Origin: Dialister sp. i34-0019-2H8
GTDB taxonomy: Bacteria; Bacillota; Negativicutes; Veillonellales; Dialisteraceae
Direction of reading: 5' to 3'
NCBI RefSeq assembly: GCF_042846925.1
Contig: NZ_BAABYQ010000001.1
Location: 1,542,826-1,582,825, forward strand
Length of the DNA: 40,000 nucleotides
The translations under genes were made by a program, and so were the position numbers. Under the pieces are notes generated by a model that was given only the letters and a program-made list of their open reading frames with translations, did no database searches and had not been told where the DNA came from. Below, piece by piece: positions 10,168 to 33,788 of the stretch; within the stretch, counting starts at the first letter, position 1; every line of letters starts with the position of its first letter.

Positions 10168-10746
10168 TCAGTACCATTCACTTAAATCATATTTCCGCCC
10201 ATCAATTTCAAAAGAATCAGTATATTGCCAACCAGCAAGGATTCTGCTCGGGAAATAATCATGGAAATCACATGCACCGGCATATTGGGCAATCCATACG
10301 GGTACATAATCAGCTAGATCATCAAGATTCAGGCAGTCTGTGATAGTAGACAGACTTGCATAGATTCCGGCAGAATAACCCGCTGCATTGCATTCTGAAA
10401 TAAAAGCACTGCAGATAGCCGTCACATCATCTCTACCCTGTCCAATGACCTCAGGGGCTTCCGCATCAAACCAAATCCCTAACGGCGGTGTACCGTACCC
10501 CAATGCATTCAACGCCTCGATCACTCGATTTGCTTCTTCTCTTGCTCGCTCGGTAGTTTGTGCGTGCGTGTAGCAATAGGCGCCCCACGGCAATCCCCTA
10601 GCCTCCGCACCGGCGATATGTTTTCCGTGCAGTTGAGTCAGGCTTCTGCCCTCGGAAATCTTCACAATCGCACCACCGACTCCTGCGGCGATGAGATGAG
10701 ACCAGTTAATGTGATCATTCCAGTCACTTAAATCAGTTACCAGCAT
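10168..10746 (-). CDS. GH25 muramidase endolysin, catalytic domain only
   Basis: MLVTDLSDWNDHINW...GGAIVKISEG...GAYCYTHA...WFDAE...WQY pattern of glycoside hydrolase family 25 lysozymes. There is no C-terminal wall-binding domain. Confidence 0.9.
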   Translation of the reverse strand: MLVTDLSDWNDHINWSHLIAAGVGGAIVKISEGRSLTQLHGKHIAGAEARGLPWGAYCYTHAQTTERAREEANRVIEALNALGYGTPPLGIWFDAEAPEVIGQGRDDVTAICSAFISECNAAGYSAGIYASLSTITDCLNLDDLADYVPVWIAQYAGACDFHDYFPSRILAGWQYTDSFEIDGRKYDLSEWY

Positions 10747-11936: not shown

Positions 11937-12942
11937 ATGAAAAATCCAAACGGTTATGGCTGTGTCAAACATTTAAGCGGATCACGGAGGAATCCGTTCG
12001 CCTTTGTTGTAACAGACCACGGAAAACAGATAGTGAAGGGCTACTTTCCTACCAAAATGGACGCACTCGCCTATCAGGTTGAATACTGGAATATGCATGG
12101 CCGCACCCGTCTTTCTGAAATCACACTTGAAGAATTGTACGCCGAATGGCTGCCAGCGCACCGCCCCCTACGTTTCTGAAAGCACCGTGCGAAGCTATCA
12201 ATCAGCCTATGGTCATCTCTATCCCCTCTATGGCATGCCAATCAAGGAAATCAAATACAAGCACATGCAAGCCGCCCTGGACGCCATGGGTGGCTTATCT
12301 TATGCAAGCAAAAAGAAAGTACGCAATCTCCTATCACTGCTCTGGGCATATGCAAGGCAGATGGACTACACAAGCAATGACTATACCGGCCTGCTACGTA
12401 TAGGAAAGAACCGCCCTGTGAACCCACATCACGCTATCAGCCGCCGCAAAGTCAATGCCCTATGGAAGATGACAGACGTTCCCGGCATCGATATCATCCT
12501 CATACTGATCTACACCGGCCTGAGAAACGGCGAGCTCCGCGCCCTGCTGAAATCCGATGTAAACCGTCGGCAGAAATACATCCGCATACGGAAATCAAAA
12601 ACCGCGGCAGGCGTGCGTATCATACCTATCCATAGCCGCATATGGCCTTTTGTAGAAGTGCGCCTATCCTGCAATGGTTCCCATCTGATAACCGACGATA
12701 GCGGCATGCCCTATACATATAGCCGTCTAGCCCGCCTTTTCACCCATGTTATGGAATTGGTGCACGGCGAAAAGCATAAGCTCCACGACACCCGCCACAC
12801 CTGCGCCACGTGGCTTGATGACGCCGAGGTGAATGACAACGCCAAGAAAATGATTCTCGGGCATGCACGCAATGATGTGACGAACGGCGTCTATACCCAT
12901 AAAAACTTGCGCCAGCTGCGGAAAACCATCGAGAAAATCTGA
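11937..12942 (+). pseudogene. tyrosine recombinase (phage-integrase family with AP2-like N-terminal DNA-binding domain), frameshifted at a C5 run
   Basis: Frame 1 (11937-12179) reads MKNPNGYGCVKHLSGSRRNPFAFVV...GYFPTKMDALAY...LEELYAEWLPAHRP. Frame 2 (to 12942) reads YVSESTVRSYQSAYGHL...IRKSKTAAGVRIIPI...HDTRHTCATWL...LGHA...YTH. Removing one C from 12164-12168 joins the two frames. Confidence 0.8.
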
Positions 12943-13324: not shown

Positions 13325-13508
13325 TGGTGGTTCCGGTTTCACATATCCGCTTGCCCTGTCTAGGGTTTTGACAGTTGCGTTTTCGCTCAATAGCGGCGTC
13401 TGGGCTTATAACTGGTATACGCAAGATTCGAAGGTAAATATCAGCAATACAGATGCATCAAACCCCAAAGGATTTCCTTACAATTGGTTGGTTATTGGCA
13501 TTGCTTAA
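13314..13508 (+). other. silent alternative tail-fibre tip cassette B (64 codons, no start)
   Basis: QGGIGGSGFTYPLALSRVLTVAFSLNSGVWAYNWYTQDSKVNISNTDASNPKGFPYNWLVIGIA*. Its stop overlaps the expressed gene stop in the palindrome TTAA (13505-13508). Confidence 0.75.
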
Positions 13509-14416
13509 CGGCCGATAGCTACCCACTCGAAGTATTGACCTTGCTGCTCTGTACCGATCGCATAGCGAAATTGTGATTCATTTTTCCAGACAATGTGGTG
13601 ACCGGTTCGGTACGCATACCTATCATTCTTGTTGCGTTCTGGGCTGCCTGTAATCGTAAAGCATGCATTAGGGAATGCAATAGGGTAGCTGACAGTGTAA
13701 GCAGGCGTGGCCCCATCGTTCTCCCAGTTCTTTCCATTGTTGTGCATTCCACCCTGTATAATTAGCGGCACCGCGCCGCTAAGCTTCACCCACCATGCAT
13801 TAGCGTTTGACACATCGCCTGCAATAACCCCAACACCAGGCTCATTGATAGCCCCAATAGCCGTACGCACTTCTGCTGCCGTCGCTTTACCAAGTACGTC
13901 GCGCATGAATTTTGACAGACTGGCAAGAGATGCTGCGTTCGCTCCTGTGAAGTAAGGTAATTTATCAACTGATGGACTGAGTCCGCCTAATGCTTTTAGT
14001 GCAGTAGTTAAATCAACTTCGATATCAGCATTATCACTTCCATCAAAAGAAGCAGCCTTGCCCGTCAGACAATCTCCAATAACGTTGATGTATCTAGCCG
14101 TTTTCAGCTTAGTGGCAGATGCTGCATTTCCCGCAATGCCATTAGCATGGGATTGGGCGCTTTTGTTATGATTTGCAAGCGTATCATCTCCGGCTGCTTT
14201 GTTAGCATCAATAGCTTCTTTTAATCGGGCATCGTTAGAGAAGAGCTGACTTGCCATGTCGTTTTCCAGTTTATAATGAACCGGATCAGATGAGATTCGC
14301 TGCGGAAATCCGTCGGAATTGAAGTCAAGAGTATCATCGATTCCGTCTGTTGGTCTTGTCACATTCCCCGCCGAAGCGGGAAAATCAGTTTTCCATTTAT
14401 CAAGATATTTTGCCAT
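13505..14416 (-). CDS. tail fibre protein with gp53-like distal knob
   Basis: GGGAGGAATAGAC lies before ATG 14416. ...ATKLKTARYINVIGD...LPYFTGANAASLASLS...AAEVRTAIGA... are fibre shaft motifs. The C-terminal ...IIQGG...YPIAFPNACFTITGS...WVAIGR is a receptor-binding-knob pattern. Confidence 0.85.
   Translation of the reverse strand: MAKYLDKWKTDFPASAGNVTRPTDGIDDTLDFNSDGFPQRISSDPVHYKLENDMASQLFSNDARLKEAIDANKAAGDDTLANHNKSAQSHANGIAGNAASATKLKTARYINVIGDCLTGKAASFDGSDNADIEVDLTTALKALGGLSPSVDKLPYFTGANAASLASLSKFMRDVLGKATAAEVRTAIGAINEPGVGVIAGDVSNANAWWVKLSGAVPLIIQGGMHNNGKNWENDGATPAYTVSYPIAFPNACFTITGSPERNKNDRYAYRTGHHIVWKNESQFRYAIGTEQQGQYFEWVAIGR
13746..13760 (-). repeat. crossover-site candidate C inside the expressed tail-fibre gene
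   Basis: Minus strand TATACAGGGTGGAAT encodes I-Q-G-G-M at the start of the distal domain. Confidence 0.7.
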
Positions 14417-14418
14417 GT

Positions 14419-14958
14419 CTATTCCTCCCATTTAGTAATGGACGAACCATAGGTATATTTCCCATCAAATTGGATTTTTCCATTCCATGAAAAGCCTAGA
14501 TACACATTGAGTCCCAAATGTGCCGGCTTGTAATAGATGATTGTATTCTGCATCTGTTTCAAATCCTCTGTATTTGTGGATGTAGTGTAGATATTGAAAT
14601 AGTACTTGTCGTTATGTTCCTCGATGTATCCATATCCGTAGGCATTCACCACTTTCCCCAAAAAAGATACCGTGCTGGTTTGCGTACCTTGCAGCTTAAC
14701 CAGCACTTTTTTGCGCCGTTGTTCATAAGTATCTTCCGGGCTAGGGTGCAGGTCCAGCACTCGTTCCCACATGGATAGTCCCCAAGTCGCTTTCTCGACG
14801 AAAAACTGATTCAGCGCATCGAGAATAGCATTACGGATGTTTTCATGCTCCCATGAACACGCCTCACATACTGCACGGAAATGAGGATCTTTTTTTAGAA
14901 AAGGCGGCAAGTACTGCGTGATATCTATTTTGTCAGATGACCTTAGTAGTCTAGTCAA
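14419..14958 (-). CDS. XkdU/YmfQ-like (DUF2313) baseplate/tail protein
   Basis: Position after baseplate J. LPPFLKKDPHF...EHENIRNAILD...YEQRRKKVLVKL pattern. Confidence 0.8.
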   Translation of the reverse strand: MTRLLRSSDKIDITQYLPPFLKKDPHFRAVCEACSWEHENIRNAILDALNQFFVEKATWGLSMWERVLDLHPSPEDTYEQRRKKVLVKLQGTQTSTVSFLGKVVNAYGYGYIEEHNDKYYFNIYTTSTNTEDLKQMQNTIIYYKPAHLGLNVYLGFSWNGKIQFDGKYTYGSSITKWEE

Positions 14959-25170: not shown

Positions 25171-25431
25171 TTACCAATCTATATCTGGCAAAATATCTTT
25201 AAAAGGCCTGCCCATAATCTTAAAGTTTGCCAATGCCTCATCAATAGAAGAATATCGGTAGTCATCATCAGTATCTGCACGTCCACAAGTATATTCGGTA
25301 GGATCATTGTAAACTCCTGTTTTGGAGTCAAACACTTCACCAATGAAATACCAATGTCCTTTATAAGAAAATGTTAAATCCTGTGCAGCATCTAAATACT
25401 CAATAAGCTCTCTGCGTGTCAATGATCTCAC
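25171..25431 (-). CDS. small protein, paralogue 2 of candidate immunity family (G.PF...LPD.DW C-terminus)
   Basis: ...YKGHWYFIGE...SSIDEALANFKIMGRPFKDILPDIDW aligns with the 25796-26065 product. AT-rich. Confidence 0.6.
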   Translation of the reverse strand: MRSLTRRELIEYLDAAQDLTFSYKGHWYFIGEVFDSKTGVYNDPTEYTCGRADTDDDYRYSSIDEALANFKIMGRPFKDILPDIDW

Positions 25432-25480
25432 CTCAGATTCCTACCAACTTCTTTTCTATCAACTCGCAAGTGCTTTTGGT

Positions 25481-25720
25481 TTAAAATATCACTGTATCCC
25501 AAATTTCCTTGTCAAATTGAGGAATTGCTTGCTTCGTTTTTATCGCACGCCAAAGTTTCTTCGCTGCTAATTTATACTCACTTGCAACAGGGTGTACAGG
25601 ATCCAATAACGTAACACGCTCAAGAGAATGCTGTCCGAATACTTTTAAGTATTCCGTCTTTGCACGAGTTAAATCCGCCATTGCTATATCAAGATTCGTC
25701 CCGAATGCGTCTGCAGGCAT
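25481..25720 (-). CDS. hypothetical small protein (79 aa)
   Basis: ORF between the two paralogues. A G-rich RBS lies before the ATG. AT-rich. Confidence 0.5.
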   Translation of the reverse strand: MPADAFGTNLDIAMADLTRAKTEYLKVFGQHSLERVTLLDPVHPVASEYKLAAKKLWRAIKTKQAIPQFDKEIWDTVIF

Positions 25721-25795
25721 ATTAATCCCCCCATTTATGCCATTAATATCAGACCAGCATGTTCGCCAGCACTTTTCAACAAGTGTTTTTTAGGG

Positions 25796-26065
25796 TTACA
25801 TCGCATCCCAATCCAAATCTGGTAAAAGACTTCTGAATGGCTGTCCATCAAGGAATGTAGCATTCATAAAGGCCTCAAAATCAGGAAAATCCCAACATTC
25901 CTCATCTTTCAATGTATCATATACGCAAATATAGTATCTTAAATCACCCGGATCGTGCTCAACAGAATATCTAATTCCTTTATACCAAAATGAATTATTA
26001 TACAGTGTCCAATTTTCCATCCCATCACGTAGTTGCTTTTCGCTTAACTGCAGCTTCAATCTCAT
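25796..26065 (-). CDS. small protein, paralogue 1 of candidate immunity family
   Basis: Overlaps the 3' end of the MuF-toxin gene by 41 nt. Contains ...FWYKGIRYSV...FPDFEAFMNATFLDGQPFRSLLPDLDWD. Confidence 0.6.
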   Translation of the reverse strand: MRLKLQLSEKQLRDGMENWTLYNNSFWYKGIRYSVEHDPGDLRYYICVYDTLKDEECWDFPDFEAFMNATFLDGQPFRSLLPDLDWDAM

Positions 26066-30526: not shown

Positions 30527-31771
30527 TCACCTCCTTAAAATCTTCACTCTTGCCCTAGCCATTTCATTCTGGCAGGCGTATCTCGTGGCATCGATGGCGT
30601 GGTTGTCTGCGTCAGGGTAGGCAGAAATAAACTGCCCCTGACGATTTCTCTCGTATTCGTAGCAGGTAAATTCCCTGTATGTGTTCGGGCACCTGCGCTT
30701 ATCGATGTATATCTTCCGCCTTCCCTGCAGCCATTTGATGCCGTAAGCTACACTGTCAGGCCCTTTGCGGCATCCGATAATATTGACGCCCATGTCACGT
30801 ATTTCAGCAATACTCTTCGGCTCTGCAGAATCGGCGATGATCGGTGCCGTGAGGTGCTTGGCACGCAGGATTTGCGCTACAGCGCGGTTCGTGAGTTTCT
30901 GCTGGTATACCTCGTCAAAGATATACAGCTCCTCCTTCTTAGCATCATAGTGCATCTGAACGAAAGCCAGAGGATCTACCGCGAAACCGAAGTCCAGCCC
31001 GCAATGCAGCCTGTCGAATTGTGCAATCATCTCATCGCTCATGTGCAGATCCTCCACATTCTCGAAGACGGCACCGCCGGTCCCGGTGACTTTTCCCAGA
31101 TACTCATGCTCGTAGCTCTTGAGATTCTTCCCCTTCAGCTTGTCCGCTTCCAGCAGGAACTGGCTGCCTAGCCATTCCTTCGGGACCTGCAAATAGGTGG
31201 AATGGTGTATCAGCCTATCCGCATCGTCATAGAGCTGCTCTTCGTTCACCCAGTTGTTTCTCGACTTTGGCGGGTTGAAAGAACAGAACTCCCAGTATTT
31301 ATCACCGCCGCGAAGCAAAGACTGGTTCAGATTCCGGATCTCTTCCATACCGGCGAACTGGTCGAATTCTTCAAACCACACCACGCCGATATAGCCGAAT
31401 GGCGGCTTGATGGACTTGAGCTTCATGGGATCATCATCGCCCATGAAATAAATCTTCTGCCCCGTATGCTTCAGGGTGATTTCCGGCGGGGAAATCTTTG
31501 CGGAAAACAAACCATTAAGGCCCATAGCATCGATTCCCCATAACACCTGCGGATAAACCGATGTCTTGATGGTGTTCCCGACTTTTCGGAGTACGACCGC
31601 ATGGCACTTGGGGTTCTGCAATAGCAGGATAGGCAGCATGACACTCACAAAAGAGGACTTCGTACTGCCACGGCCGCCTTTCATCCAATAATGGGTATGA
31701 CGGTGATGAATGATGTCTTGGAAGACGGCATCAAAAGCAGGCCCAACATGGTCCGCTACGTTAATCTCCAT
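30527..31771 (-). CDS. terminase large subunit (PBSX/Terminase_3-like)
   Basis: Start taken at MEINVADH (ATG 31771). Walker A KGGRGSTKS, plus a C-terminal nuclease part. Confidence 0.95.
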   Translation of the reverse strand: MEINVADHVGPAFDAVFQDIIHHRHTHYWMKGGRGSTKSSFVSVMLPILLLQNPKCHAVVLRKVGNTIKTSVYPQVLWGIDAMGLNGLFSAKISPPEITLKHTGQKIYFMGDDDPMKLKSIKPPFGYIGVVWFEEFDQFAGMEEIRNLNQSLLRGGDKYWEFCSFNPPKSRNNWVNEEQLYDDADRLIHHSTYLQVPKEWLGSQFLLEADKLKGKNLKSYEHEYLGKVTGTGGAVFENVEDLHMSDEMIAQFDRLHCGLDFGFAVDPLAFVQMHYDAKKEELYIFDEVYQQKLTNRAVAQILRAKHLTAPIIADSAEPKSIAEIRDMGVNIIGCRKGPDSVAYGIKWLQGRRKIYIDKRRCPNTYREFTCYEYERNRQGQFISAYPDADNHAIDATRYACQNEMARARVKILRR

Positions 31772-32213
31772 CGTCCCCGCCTCTTTCAAACTTGAATGTA
31801 ATGTGCGCCTCACCGTCAACATCTTCCGGCCTGTCCAGTCCGTAGCGCTTCGCCAGCTGCACCGCCGCTTTGATACGGTCATTGGCTCCGATCTGCTTTT
31901 CTATGGTTTTTGCTTCGCTGCAGCCGTCGCCAGTCCCTTCCACGACAACGACCTCCTCTTTGATTTCGCCGCGCATGGAAGACGTCAGGAACTCCATCAC
32001 TTCTTTCGCCTTGGCAATGCGGTTCTCCTCTATTTCCTTGAGACGTTTCTCCAAAAACGCTTTCACATAAGGCAGATCTAAGGTTTTGGATGCAATGAAT
32101 CGGGCGTTCTTTTTTGAATACCCGGCTTTAATGGCCGCCTCTGTCTGATTGCCGGTCTCTATAAAATAATCTACCAGTCGTTTTTGCTTTTCCGTTAGTA
32201 CCACTTCAGCCAT
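31761..32213 (-). CDS. terminase small subunit
   Basis: Start taken at MAEVVLTEKQKRLVDYFIETGNQTEAAIKAGYS (HTH of Terminase_2-type small subunits). Overlaps terL by 11 nt. Confidence 0.85.
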   Translation of the reverse strand: MAEVVLTEKQKRLVDYFIETGNQTEAAIKAGYSKKNARFIASKTLDLPYVKAFLEKRLKEIEENRIAKAKEVMEFLTSSMRGEIKEEVVVVEGTGDGCSEAKTIEKQIGANDRIKAAVQLAKRYGLDRPEDVDGEAHITFKFERGGDDGD

Positions 32214-32240
32214 TACATCCTTCACCACCTCTGTTTCTGC

Positions 32241-32272
32241 CAAATAAAAAGCACTCACTATCAAAATGAGTG
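32241..32272 (-). terminator. rho-independent terminator after the AT-rich moron
   Basis: Minus strand GCACTCA-9 nt-TGAGTGC followed by TTTTTATTT. It lies 12 nt after the stop at 32284. Confidence 0.55.
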
Positions 32273-32283
32273 CCTAAACCTGA

Positions 32284-33192
32284 TCAATTTTGCTGTGTAT
32301 ATTTGACGACTTGCGTTATAACATTATCTGTATGTCCCAATTTCCTATGATTTTTGATTTGCTGATGCTTTTCTAATTTTACATCAAGCAAGTCTTGCGG
32401 GCCTAATCGAATTTGACCGGCTGCAATTTTCGCAAGGAAATCTTTGTCCGCCACAGTTGCTGTAAAAGAGGTATCTCCATCATTAAACTTCCATTTATGA
32501 GAACCATCAAAAACGGCAGCTTCTACGGTTACAGATATGACATAACAGGAACATTTTTCCTCAATCACATCTTCCGGGACTGTTTTGACATATTCTGATT
32601 CTTCTTTATTGATACTCATAACGGGACGAGCCATTTCATGAATATCTCGAACCTCAAAATGATCAACACCTGCTTGCTCCAAAGGTTTAACAAGGCCGGG
32701 CAACGCCTCTCTAACATTTTTGTCTACAAACAAATTATATACTGGTTTGTAAACAATAAATGGAGCACCTTTATCTGGATGCACTTCAACTTGCCCATTC
32801 TCTTTTTCCACAGTCTTAATAATTCTTCGGGTACGTAACTTCTTAATTAGCCAGAAGAGCCCGCCACCTACTGCGCCTGCAACTTCGATACCGTTATTAG
32901 TTAAATCAAGGAATTGGGCAATTTGGTCAATGCTGTAGCCAGCAACAAACAAAGACTTGATTTGTTCCGGCAAGGTCTGAATCAAAGCCAAGACAATTTC
33001 AAACGATCCTTTTTGAAAATCTGCCTTTACCCTGACATCTATAGAAGAATTATCATTATTCAATAGTCGATTGGCTTGATTGACCAATGAACTCATTGAA
33101 ATCAGAACTTCGCCTAGTGTCTTAGCATCCATAGAGCCATTATCAACACTAGGTCCACAATAAGCAATGCAAATCTTCGTGCTCTTTTCCAT
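32284..33192 (-). CDS. AT-rich moron: 302-aa protein of unknown function with one central hydrophobic helix
   Basis: GGAG lies 7 nt before ATG 33192 (MEKSTKICIAYCGP...). Central GIEVAGAVGGGLFWLIKKL segment. The base composition is visibly lower in GC than both neighbours. It has its own promoter-like and terminator signals. Confidence 0.75.
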   Translation of the reverse strand: MEKSTKICIAYCGPSVDNGSMDAKTLGEVLISMSSLVNQANRLLNNDNSSIDVRVKADFQKGSFEIVLALIQTLPEQIKSLFVAGYSIDQIAQFLDLTNNGIEVAGAVGGGLFWLIKKLRTRRIIKTVEKENGQVEVHPDKGAPFIVYKPVYNLFVDKNVREALPGLVKPLEQAGVDHFEVRDIHEMARPVMSINKEESEYVKTVPEDVIEEKCSCYVISVTVEAAVFDGSHKWKFNDGDTSFTATVADKDFLAKIAAGQIRLGPQDLLDVKLEKHQQIKNHRKLGHTDNVITQVVKYTQQN

Positions 33193-33284
33193 ACGGATAC
33201 TCCAAAACATTTTCATACCCCTACAAGAAACAGACAACCATCACTAGCAGCCTGTTTCTTTTGTCGCGCAATTTTCACAATACT

Positions 33285-33293
33285 ATTATATCA
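33285..33293 (-). promoter_or_regulatory. extended -10 (TGaTATAAT) upstream of the moron
   Basis: Minus strand agTGaTATAATagt, about 95 nt upstream of the ATG. A 9-bp-stem hairpin (33225-33260) lies in the putative leader. Confidence 0.35.
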
Positions 33294-33322
33294 CTTTCAA
33301 AGTGCTGATTTGTGCTGGCCTT

Positions 33323-33748
33323 TTAATCGGCTCGCACTTTCTCCAACTCCTCTACCGTGCGACGAGCAAGGTCTCGAGTATAGCTCTTCCCATAATGCAG
33401 CCGTTCCGCCACGATACCCCACGGCACGCGATAGAGATAGTGTTCCTGCACCGCCGCCTTCCCCGGACCATCAGGTACCTTCTCCATGAGCTGATACAAT
33501 TCCGCCCGATGCCGCATAACGCGTTCTAGCTGACGGGCAATCTGTTCATTGATTCGCTCCCGTTCCTTCTCGATATTAAGCAGCACATCGGTCAGATCAC
33601 CCTGCTTCCCGCCAGATACTTTGTCTTTATCGTATCGGATCGCCTTTACACCGGCGTTGTCCGCTATGATCATGTCCTTCTGCCTGCGGGACGTCTCCAG
33701 CAGCCCAATCTCCCTATACACCTGTCGAAGCAAATCCAATACTCTCAC
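33323..33748 (-). CDS. DUF1492-like / sigma-70 region-4-like late transcriptional regulator
   Basis: AGGAGG lies 9 nt before GTG 33748. Architecture ...AIRYDKDKV...EKERERINEQI...VQEHYLYRVPWGIVAERLHYGKSYTRDLARRTVEELEKV matches phage DUF1492/ArpU-like regulators found before terminase genes. Confidence 0.7.
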   Translation of the reverse strand: MRVLDLLRQVYREIGLLETSRRQKDMIIADNAGVKAIRYDKDKVSGGKQGDLTDVLLNIEKERERINEQIARQLERVMRHRAELYQLMEKVPDGPGKAAVQEHYLYRVPWGIVAERLHYGKSYTRDLARRTVEELEKVRAD

Positions 33749-33788
33749 TACTGATGCCCTCCTATGTCGATGTCTATAGAACGCCAAA

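Follow-up and report, generated by a model that had tools for sequence, protein, structure and literature searches.

The 40,000-nucleotide (nt) window of Dialister sp. i34-0019-2H8 analyzed here (contig NZ_BAABYQ010000001.1, positions 1,542,826 to 1,582,825; all positions below are those of the window unless a locus is named) carries a prophage on its minus strand, and between the DUF1492-like regulator gene of this prophage and its small terminase subunit gene, terS, lies an AT-rich gene that we call gene X. By sequence comparison, the product of gene X is a homologue of gp29 of mycobacteriophage MichelleMyBell. From this relationship and from the cargo that its slot holds in related phages, we consider it probable that gene X, which is dispensable and horizontally acquired, is an antiphage defense gene of the gp29 family in a temperate siphovirus of gut Clostridia. 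It is a new, divergent, stand-alone member of the already known gp29/PDC-S42/NF053583 family and does not represent a new kind of system.

32284 to 33210, minus strand: coding sequence of gene X, encoding a gp29-like/PDC-S42/LAPAL-family protein.

An earlier note on this DNA could not assign the protein to any family; full-length models in PADLOC, NCBIfam, and phrog match it. The PADLOC PDC-S42 model (PDLC05015) aligned with residues 5 to 300 of 302 (E = 5.2e-61), NCBIfam NF053583 (LAPAL_fam) scored 216.6 bits against a cutoff of 60 (E = 4.6e-64) and paired residues 9 to 297 with model positions 3 to 289 of 292, and phrog_3243 (function unknown) matched with an E value of 1.8e-53. Pfam gave zero matches, both for the X protein and for 60 family members. 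MichelleMyBell gp29 matches the same models (NF053583, 2.5e-53; PDC-S42, 1.6e-16), and direct comparison of the two proteins by BLASTP gave an E value of 2e-10 over 214 amino acids (aa) at 23% identity. The two proteins are of similar length, match both models over their full length, and have a Gly-rich hydrophobic segment at matching central positions, and both are encoded by dispensable accessory genes of temperate phages. They differ in setting: gp29 lies between the lysis genes and the integrase gene of a Mycobacterium phage and is followed and overlapped by gp30, whereas gene X lies between a late regulator and terS in a phage of a gut Clostridia member and has no gp30 next to it. A phenotype has been described for MichelleMyBell alone.

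An exhaustive HMMER search recovered 2,422 representatives of 50%-identity clusters at E values of ≤1e-3, with 1,229 at ≤1e-10; practically all are ~300 aa long and align over their entire length. Among isolated phages, tblastn identified ORF19 of Lactobacillus phage A2, ORF27 of Listeria phage vB_LmoS_188, BBP_0973 of Bifidobacterium prophage Bbif-1 (PDC-S42 E values of 7e-77, 6e-71, and 2e-39, respectively), and a copy in a Vibrio Vinavirales element that its depositors labeled MMB_gp29_gp30__gp29. Lysogeny modules beside integrases hold the family members of all four of these elements and of locus L019 (loci of our comparison are numbered with the prefix L): A2 ORF19 is placed between the lysin and integrase genes, vB_LmoS_188 ORF27 adjoins the integrase gene, and a relative with 27% identity adjoins both an integrase gene and a BrnT/BrnA pair. 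Further members are isolated chromosomal genes from which phage context is absent. Like gene X, A2 ORF19, vB_LmoS_188 ORF27, and BBP_0973 stand alone without gp30 in temperate phages of Firmicutes or Actinobacteria; unlike gene X, these uncharacterized relatives (23 to 27% identity) sit in the lysogeny module by the integrase gene, and ORF27 is on the repressor/integrase strand.

PDC-S42, NF053583, and phrog_3243 are bioinformatic entries without a mechanism, and a literature search on the names PDC-S42 and LAPAL motif found no publication. The X protein shares with them its full-length high scores and the single-gene layout that PDC-S42 assumes. The product name of NF053583, “LAPAL motif-containing putative phage structural protein,” is at odds with the evidence gathered on gene X, and the literal motif is absent from the X protein, which reads LGEVL for LAPAL (T-LGEVL-IS at residues 25 to 32). 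L26 and L30 of the motif position are kept and the A/P/A residues are substituted; relatives P0008 and P0010 do have LAPAL. LAPAL is a naming motif, without a demonstrated functional requirement.

The gp29/gp30 prophage defense of MichelleMyBell was reportedly described by Dedrick et al. in 2017 and is said to be the system called MMB_gp29_gp30 in DefenseFinder. According to secondary sources, the MichelleMyBell prophage blocks phage Tweety by a defense of the abortive-infection type that Tweety gp54 counters (PMC6426606, PMC8549241). These sources put the effect against Tweety at four to five orders of magnitude (PMC6426606, PMC8549241, PMC11856565), place the action of the system after adsorption and DNA injection (PMC6426606, PMC8549241), and characterize gp29 as a toxic protein and gp30 as a membrane protein (PMC11856565). 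In our analysis, MichelleMyBell gp30 is a two-helix membrane protein of 67 aa (maximum hydrophobicity, 2.61) whose gene overlaps the 3′ end of gp29. A gp30-like partner was not found at the X locus: no open reading frame of ≥20 aa encoding a hydrophobic helix is present on the strand of gene X, either between its stop codon and terS or overlapping its 3′ end. The distance from the stop codon to the terS start is 70 nt and is filled by a terminator. Among 11 other family loci that we checked for a partner, MichelleMyBell has gp30; of the rest, the Vibrio element alone, or perhaps also L007, has a comparable small hydrophobic reading frame downstream. The gp29 family is thus mostly stand-alone, as the “S” (single-gene) class of PADLOC assumes. 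With a gp29 homologue present and gp30 absent, the X locus falls outside the two-gene definition of DefenseFinder and within the single-gene definition of PDC-S42, and no partner gene lies inside the promoter-terminator unit. We saw no correlation between a weakly hydrophobic central segment and the occurrence of a membrane partner (L006 and X have neither).

The second body of evidence comes from the site that gene X occupies. The prophage order is primase/helicase, RusA, DUF1492-like regulator, X, terS, terL, portal, scaffold, and capsid. A profile search of genome contigs recovered three loci, and 80 viral contigs were retrieved via terS, on which we mapped the regulator, X, terS, and terL. 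Contigs with X orthologues of 99%, 89%, and 84% identity have the same order of regulator, X, and terS, and orthologues of 48% and 44% identity also lie directly 5′ of terminase genes, of the unrelated GpA-like and Terminase_6N types, such that the family fills the pre-terminase slot ahead of three unrelated terminase types. In phages whose terL is 95 to 98% identical to that of the window, the slot between the regulator and terS contains the following.

L022 and L023: gene X.
L021, 2973 to 3927: a frameshifted gene X, in fragments of 243 and 56 aa.
L020, 2818 to 3738, plus strand: a 306-aa ClpP-like SDH protease (PF01972, 1.4e-21).
L024 (3205 to 3928, plus strand) and L025: KwaA (1.8e-37), with a 54-aa C-terminal fragment of KwaB before it.
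L026, 3068 to 3919, minus strand: a 283-aa Abi_alpha/PDC-S47 gene on the opposite strand (5.5e-39 and 3.9e-46, respectively).
L033, 3142 to 3789, plus strand: an orphan methyltransferase (3.5e-38).
L027 to L029 and L030 to L031: an empty slot of 150 to 200 nt.

Since phages with nearly the same terL carry other cargo, a frameshifted gene X, or nothing at this position, the slot is a defense-enriched cargo hotspot and gene X is dispensable for the phage; an essential structural role of gene X is excluded. A survey of the same slot in related prophages had been suggested in the earlier note, and these swapped defense genes, the frameshifted copy, and the empty slots are what it turned up. Most cargos are AT rich (GC content of 0.33 to 0.39, versus ~0.50 for the backbone), with the methyltransferase slot at 0.47, and the Abi_alpha gene of L026 is antisense to late transcription. 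Presence in some close relatives and absence from others, together with a deviant base composition, is one mark of a moron, and gene X bears it. We also observed that the Kiwa remnant of L024 consists of KwaA and a truncated KwaB in an unusual order and that the frameshifted copy in L021 represents ongoing decay of gene X where the gene is not maintained.

The composition of gene X itself is foreign to the backbone. Its GC content is 0.388, versus 0.52 and 0.49 in the 3-kb flanks, which places it among the most AT-rich 0.5% of 909-nt windows across the 40 kb, and its GC content at third codon positions is 0.32, versus 0.55 to 0.65 for the regulator, terL, and portal genes. These values support horizontal acquisition. 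The ratio of nonsynonymous to synonymous substitutions (dN/dS) was 0.04 to 0.06, with dS saturated, in comparisons with the orthologues of 84 to 89% amino acid identity; gene X is functional and under strong purifying selection. The open frame spans 32284 to 33237 on the minus strand. An ATG at 33192 (MEKST) gives the 302-aa protein and has the ribosome binding site (RBS) GGAG at 33203 to 33200, 7 nt away, and an upstream in-frame ATG at 33210, with an AGGGG RBS of its own at the same 7-nt spacing, adds MFWSIR (308 aa). Two observations favor the upstream codon. Across three lineages, changes in the codons of this extension fall near-exclusively at third positions (TTT/TTC, ATC/ATT, CGT/CGC, and AGT/AGC, plus one Ile/Leu), and a 1-nt indel among the three lineages is confined to sequence 5′ of ATG 33210. 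The true start is therefore probably ATG 33210. The description of a single 302-aa gene with a good RBS and a GC content below those of both neighbors thus held up on measurement, apart from the probable shift of the start codon.

The earlier note had also presented gene X as a self-contained unit with its own promoter, leader hairpin, and terminator. We therefore compared the flanking signals, which, with the neighboring genes, are as follows.

33323 to 33787, minus strand: DUF1492-like (LtrB-type) late transcriptional regulator, the upstream neighbor (PF07374, E = 0.006; phrog_36, E = 9.8e-8).
33302 to 33317, minus strand: two CAGCAC direct repeats, 10 nt apart, just past the regulator stop codon and 5′ of the promoter; a candidate Ltr-type site.
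33285 to 33293, minus strand: extended −10 promoter TGaTATAAT, lacking a −35 match; a conserved backbone (late-operon) promoter.
33271 to 33279, minus strand: second −10-like element TGtGAAAAT, 8 nt past the first, from the promoter scan.
33225 to 33260, minus strand: leader hairpin AAGAAACAG...CTGTTTCTT, terminator-like and part of the backbone (leader fold z score, −3.4).
32240 to 32275, minus strand: intrinsic terminator with an 11-bp stem, a 5-nt loop, and a T run (stem-loop at 32275 to 32249; z = −6.2).
32211 to 32239, minus strand: junction CAGAAACAGAGGTGGTGAAGGATGTAATG, made up of the terS RBS plus an ATG-TAA-ATG unit that overlaps the terS start codon.
31761 to 32213, minus strand: terS, the downstream neighbor (PF03592, E = 3.3e-35; phrog_51).

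Both neighbors were matched by Pfam or phrog models, and the placement of gene X between a DUF1492-like regulator and terS was thereby upheld; the PF07374 match of the regulator misses the Pfam cutoff, and phrog_36 is a transcriptional regulator family. The extended −10 and the leader hairpin are present where they had been placed, and so is the stem-loop with its T run, which had been called the gene's own terminator. What did not survive comparison is their attribution to gene X. The extended −10 does not vary among the phages with X, Kiwa remnant, SDH protease, and Abi_alpha cargos or in the X lineages of 84% and 89% identity. In the block GAAAGTGATATAATAGTATTGTGAAAATT, no letter changes between the phages with X, a Kiwa remnant, and the protease, a few change in front of Abi_alpha (TGATACAAT), and nearly all are kept in those two X lineages; the block is the same even behind two different regulator C termini and upstream sequences. 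In the empty-slot loci L027 to L029, the regulator is only 22 to 24% identical, yet TGATATAATAGTAAAAGGAAAAT lies ~150 nt 5′ of terS. L024 has the same leader hairpin, with a TTTTAT tail, ahead of its Kiwa cargo (z = −6.1), and a second hairpin allele consists of GC-rich GCCGTCCGAAATGGGCGGC followed by T's. The alleles are independent of cargo, with type 1 accompanying X and Kiwa and type 2 accompanying X (L013) and Abi_alpha (L026), and the proper T tail in L024 and L026 marks the hairpin as a terminator there.

The same is true downstream. The terminator 3′ of gene X is kept with compensatory changes in L009, L013, L015, and L018 and has a homologue behind the Kiwa cargo of L024, and in the empty-slot phages L027 to L031 a terminator stands directly 5′ of the terS RBS (a 15-bp stem in L027; GGCTCGCG...CGCGGGCTTTTTT in L030). 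The junction CAGAAACAGAGGTGGTGAAGGATGTAATG is identical or nearly so in all cargo variants and recognizable in L018 despite an unrelated terminase. Because phages with other cargo or none share these signals, we assign them to the late-operon leader instead of gene X; in order, a backbone promoter, a backbone hairpin, the cargo, a terminator, and terS follow one another. A promoter and terminator of its own that travel with the gene, the other mark of a moron, were not found for gene X. Like lambdoid morons, it is an AT-rich extra gene that some relatives have and others lack; unlike the classical moron, which brings its own promoter and terminator, it appears to borrow those of the backbone. 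A private promoter in GGGTATGAAAAT, just 5′ of the start codon, was considered and rejected because it leaves too little distance to the RBS and that codon. The reading of a self-contained unit was thus not supported, and the proposed role of gene X as a defense-type accessory gene, which had been argued from position and autonomy, now stands on membership in the gp29/PDC-S42 family and on the defense cargo of the slot. The start-stop unit ATG-TAA-ATG (ATGTAATG; 32211 to 32218), which follows the RBS GAGGTGGTGA and was seen in L009 to L033 and L018, may serve to control translation or act as a linker for recombination.

The promoter motif by itself is weak: five promoter-like sites were found in the region, versus 3.2 expected from shuffled sequences, and a consensus scan chose an overlapping TTGAAA-18-GAAAAT site over TGaTATAAT. 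The real evidence for a promoter here is conservation of the sequence across diverged relatives. TGtGAAAAT is possibly a pause element or an alternative −10. In many terS-related phages (among L027 to L065, and in the window), the arrangement is an extended −10 (TGnTAnAAT), a second hexamer (GAAAAT, TAGAAT, or TATATT) 7 to 8 nt further on, one or two terminators, and then terS. A terminator lies between the extended −10 and terS in at least 24 of the 35 loci that have an extended −10 within 300 nt of terS, a lower bound, as the strict terminator finder misses bulged stems (L021, L022, and L027 to L031); a terminator-like site was found in none of 60 control coding regions. The lambda pR′-tR′-Q region likewise has a strong promoter without a −35, a −10-like repeat, and one or more terminators ahead of the first late gene. 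Here, in contrast, the regulator is of the DUF1492/Ltr type and was published as an activator and not as an antiterminator.

The position of the CAGCAC repeats bears on how this promoter is controlled. Quiles-Puchalt et al. mapped the binding repeats of RinA, ArpU, and LtrC to the matching position, and they showed that terS expression depends on a DUF1492 (LtrB) member (PMC3753634). From the location of the repeats and this LtrB requirement, the promoter 5′ of gene X is most simply read as the late (terS) promoter, and the repeats would be the site bound by the regulator. They are kept with the first variant of the regulator C terminus and swapped with the alternative variant, which is consistent with covariation of the DNA-binding domain and its site, the variant-specific sequence lying just 5′ of the shared promoter core. 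The two C-terminal variants end in ...SYTRDLARRTVEELEKVRAD (with the CAGCAC repeats) and ...DYTRKSAYRCVELLEAIWQKEDPKSPEEK, and the TGA stop codon of the latter is the TGA of TGATATAAT.

The anatomy of the leader does not by itself imply that gene X is expressed in lysogens, for which we judge the chances to be about even, and two ways of working the leader seem to us about equally plausible. First, the extended −10 may have basal sigma-A activity, so that gene X would be transcribed in the lysogen while the hairpin attenuates, the terminator insulates terS, and the regulator permits read-through. Abi_alpha, Kiwa, and gp29-like cargos, which are useful only if made before a competitor arrives, speak for this arrangement, as do the lysogeny-module sites of the family elsewhere, and terminators between the sole promoter and terS demand some read-through mechanism anyway. 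Second, the promoter may be silent without the regulator, which would make X a late gene; the published activator model, the hairpin 5′ of X, and the methyltransferase in the slot speak for that. The published reporters were fused to terS, 3′ of an intergenic region with a terminator inferred by the authors (PMC3753634). Because such fusions would lie past the pre-terS terminator on the layout seen here, they would not separate the two arrangements. A broader proposal would put the slot inside a lambda pR′/tR′-like leader whose constitutive promoter expresses the cargo in lysogens, with Ltr regulators acting by terminator read-through and the stand-alone gp29-like protein serving as a single-protein abortive infection system without gp30; we regard this package as doubtful, and the notion of Ltr regulators as antiterminators, drawn from the analogy with lambda, strikes us as equally so.

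The late promoter is also the starting point of the strongest competing explanation of gene X, that it is a late accessory gene serving the phage's own lytic cycle (in competitor exclusion, in counterdefense, or as a packaging or lysis helper) and made once the Ltr regulator activates and polymerase reads through hairpin and terminator. The promoter follows repeats placed where Ltr regulators bind and is the only promoter-like element from the regulator to terS, empty slots included; a terminator-like hairpin stands between it and gene X; the family is found just 5′ of three different terminase types; and an orphan methyltransferase, typically a lytic-phase product, shares the slot. These features fit a late gene well, but elsewhere the family occupies lysogeny modules beside integrases and nonphage chromosomal sites, its tested homologue gp29 was reported as a prophage-mediated defense, gene X is absent or frameshifted in near-identical phages, and the Abi_alpha gene of the slot runs antisense to late transcription. 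We consider a purely lytic role unlikely, though it deserves to be taken seriously.

The structure of the X protein gave a partial view of what it might do. An alignment of 60 sequences has only four invariant residues (G13, F64, G175, and W234); K233, D249, D267, and R161 are among the near-invariant ones, and the alignment has no catalytic-looking motif. A single-sequence AlphaFold2 run was unusable (predicted local distance difference test score [pLDDT], 33), and the model built from the 60-sequence alignment reached a pLDDT of 87.5 and a predicted template modeling score of 0.76. In this model, an N-terminal beta-alpha-beta-beta domain is followed by a flexible Gly-rich hydrophobic-basic segment, then by an alpha/beta domain, and finally by a C-terminal unit (residues 210 to 299) with the order strand-strand-strand-helix-strand-strand, i.e., an OB-fold topology with a five-strand OB-like barrel. 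The earlier note had called for a remote homology and structure search; the homology part yielded the family matches described above, and the structural part yielded no significant match, since the best Foldseek hit of the model against the PDB had an E value of 0.02. The high-probability partial matches were OB folds (Rfa1 N-OB, ExoVII, and SSB). A profile search of PDB sequences returned nothing (the best was PEX13; E = 0.7), and a search of the BFVD structures returned uncharacterized proteins only, including one from mycobacteriophage Pipsqueaks. As modeled, the X protein is soluble looking, has three domains with an OB-like C terminus, and is apparently nonenzymatic.

The Gly-rich hydrophobic-basic segment, GGGLFWLIKKLR, is strongly conserved and was initially described as one hydrophobic helix. 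Its maximum 19-residue Kyte-Doolittle mean is 1.37, and in the model it consists of a low-confidence or disordered stretch (residues 101 to 107) and an 8-residue helix (112 to 119), which does not bear that description out; its candidacy as a transmembrane anchor was downgraded on these two grounds. It could still be supposed that gene X encodes a membrane-anchored superinfection exclusion protein whose central hydrophobic helix serves to block DNA injection at the envelope, given that the conserved hydrophobic segment is followed by basic residues (GGGLFWLIKKLRTRR) and that the hydrophobicity of some members is transmembrane-like (Listeria phage protein, 2.06; A2 protein, 1.76). We find this improbable: against it stand not only the value for X but also values of 0.97 to 1.09 in other members, gp29 included, the shortness, Gly richness, and loop-plus-helix modeling of the segment, the lack of a signal peptide in the X protein, and the action of the MichelleMyBell system after DNA injection, as described in the sources cited above. 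That gene X encodes a virion or assembly protein, as the NF053583 product name and the adjoining packaging genes might suggest, is very improbable, as gene X is missing or frameshifted in relatives with 95 to 98% identical terL, its composition is foreign to the structural module, and the family occurs in siphoviruses with unrelated morphogenesis modules, in a nontailed Vinavirales element, and in phage-free chromosomal islets.

If gene X is a defense gene of the gp29 family, the following course of events can be proposed, each step of which is speculative. Gene X would be transcribed from the late-operon promoter of the phage, between the promoter with its leader hairpin and the pre-terS terminator. 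Should the −35-less promoter have basal sigma-A activity, X would be made at a low level in the prophage, with the hairpin limiting its expression and the terminator insulating the terminase genes. As with gp29, the protein would act after adsorption and DNA injection; the OB-like or another domain would probably recognize a phage product or nucleic acid, and the activated protein would halt phage production in the manner of abortive infection. The Gly-rich hydrophobic-basic segment would possibly serve in membrane association or attack or in oligomerization, and without gp30, control of X would be intramolecular or would come from low expression.

Several points weigh against a defense function. 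The closest characterized member, gp29, is only ~23% identical, PDC-S42 is a candidate system, and NCBIfam names the family a putative phage structural protein. The characterized system needs two genes, of which gp30 is absent at X. Moreover, gene X lies 3′ of a late promoter that looks Ltr dependent and of a terminator-like hairpin and may be made only late in the lytic cycle, and the slot also holds a methyltransferase and a protease, which are not obvious lysogen defense genes. Finally, the structure points to neither a sensing nor an effector activity and has no significant match in the PDB.

Other features of the window were recorded along the way. A second AT-rich island (25171 to 26065, minus strand; 909-nt windows down to a GC content of 0.383) lies between the Mu-F-like head protein and head-tail connector genes and contains three genes, for products of 86, 79, and 89 aa, two of which are paralogous, with the C termini ...PFKDILPDIDW and ...PFRSLLPDLDW. 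The three proteins had no Pfam or PADLOC match, and L015 has an opposite-strand DUF2513 gene where the island sits; it is possibly another accessory or antidefense slot. A tyrosine recombinase gene (12079 to 12942, plus strand; 287 aa; Phage_integrase, E = 5.7e-17) is unusually placed between a tail fiber gene (13505 to 14431) and a GH25 endolysin gene (10168 to 10746) and could encode the prophage integrase, located after the lysis genes, or a tail fiber invertase. Past the lysis genes, the left end of the window encodes a 474-aa protein (1547 to 2971, plus strand; PF06782, E = 2.3e-36) of the UPF0236 family, which is transposase-like.

This analysis ties gene X to the only experimentally described member of a family whose clusters at 50% identity number more than 2,400 and for which a Pfam model, a solved structure, and a known mechanism are all lacking, and it indicates that the NCBI label “putative phage structural protein” is probably wrong. 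It also defines a defense hotspot, between the Ltr-type regulator and terS, in which Abi_alpha, Kiwa, methyltransferase, and protease genes alternate and which can be mined in Firmicutes prophages. The placement of such cargo inside the late-operon leader raises a testable question about Ltr switching and the expression of defense genes in lysogens.

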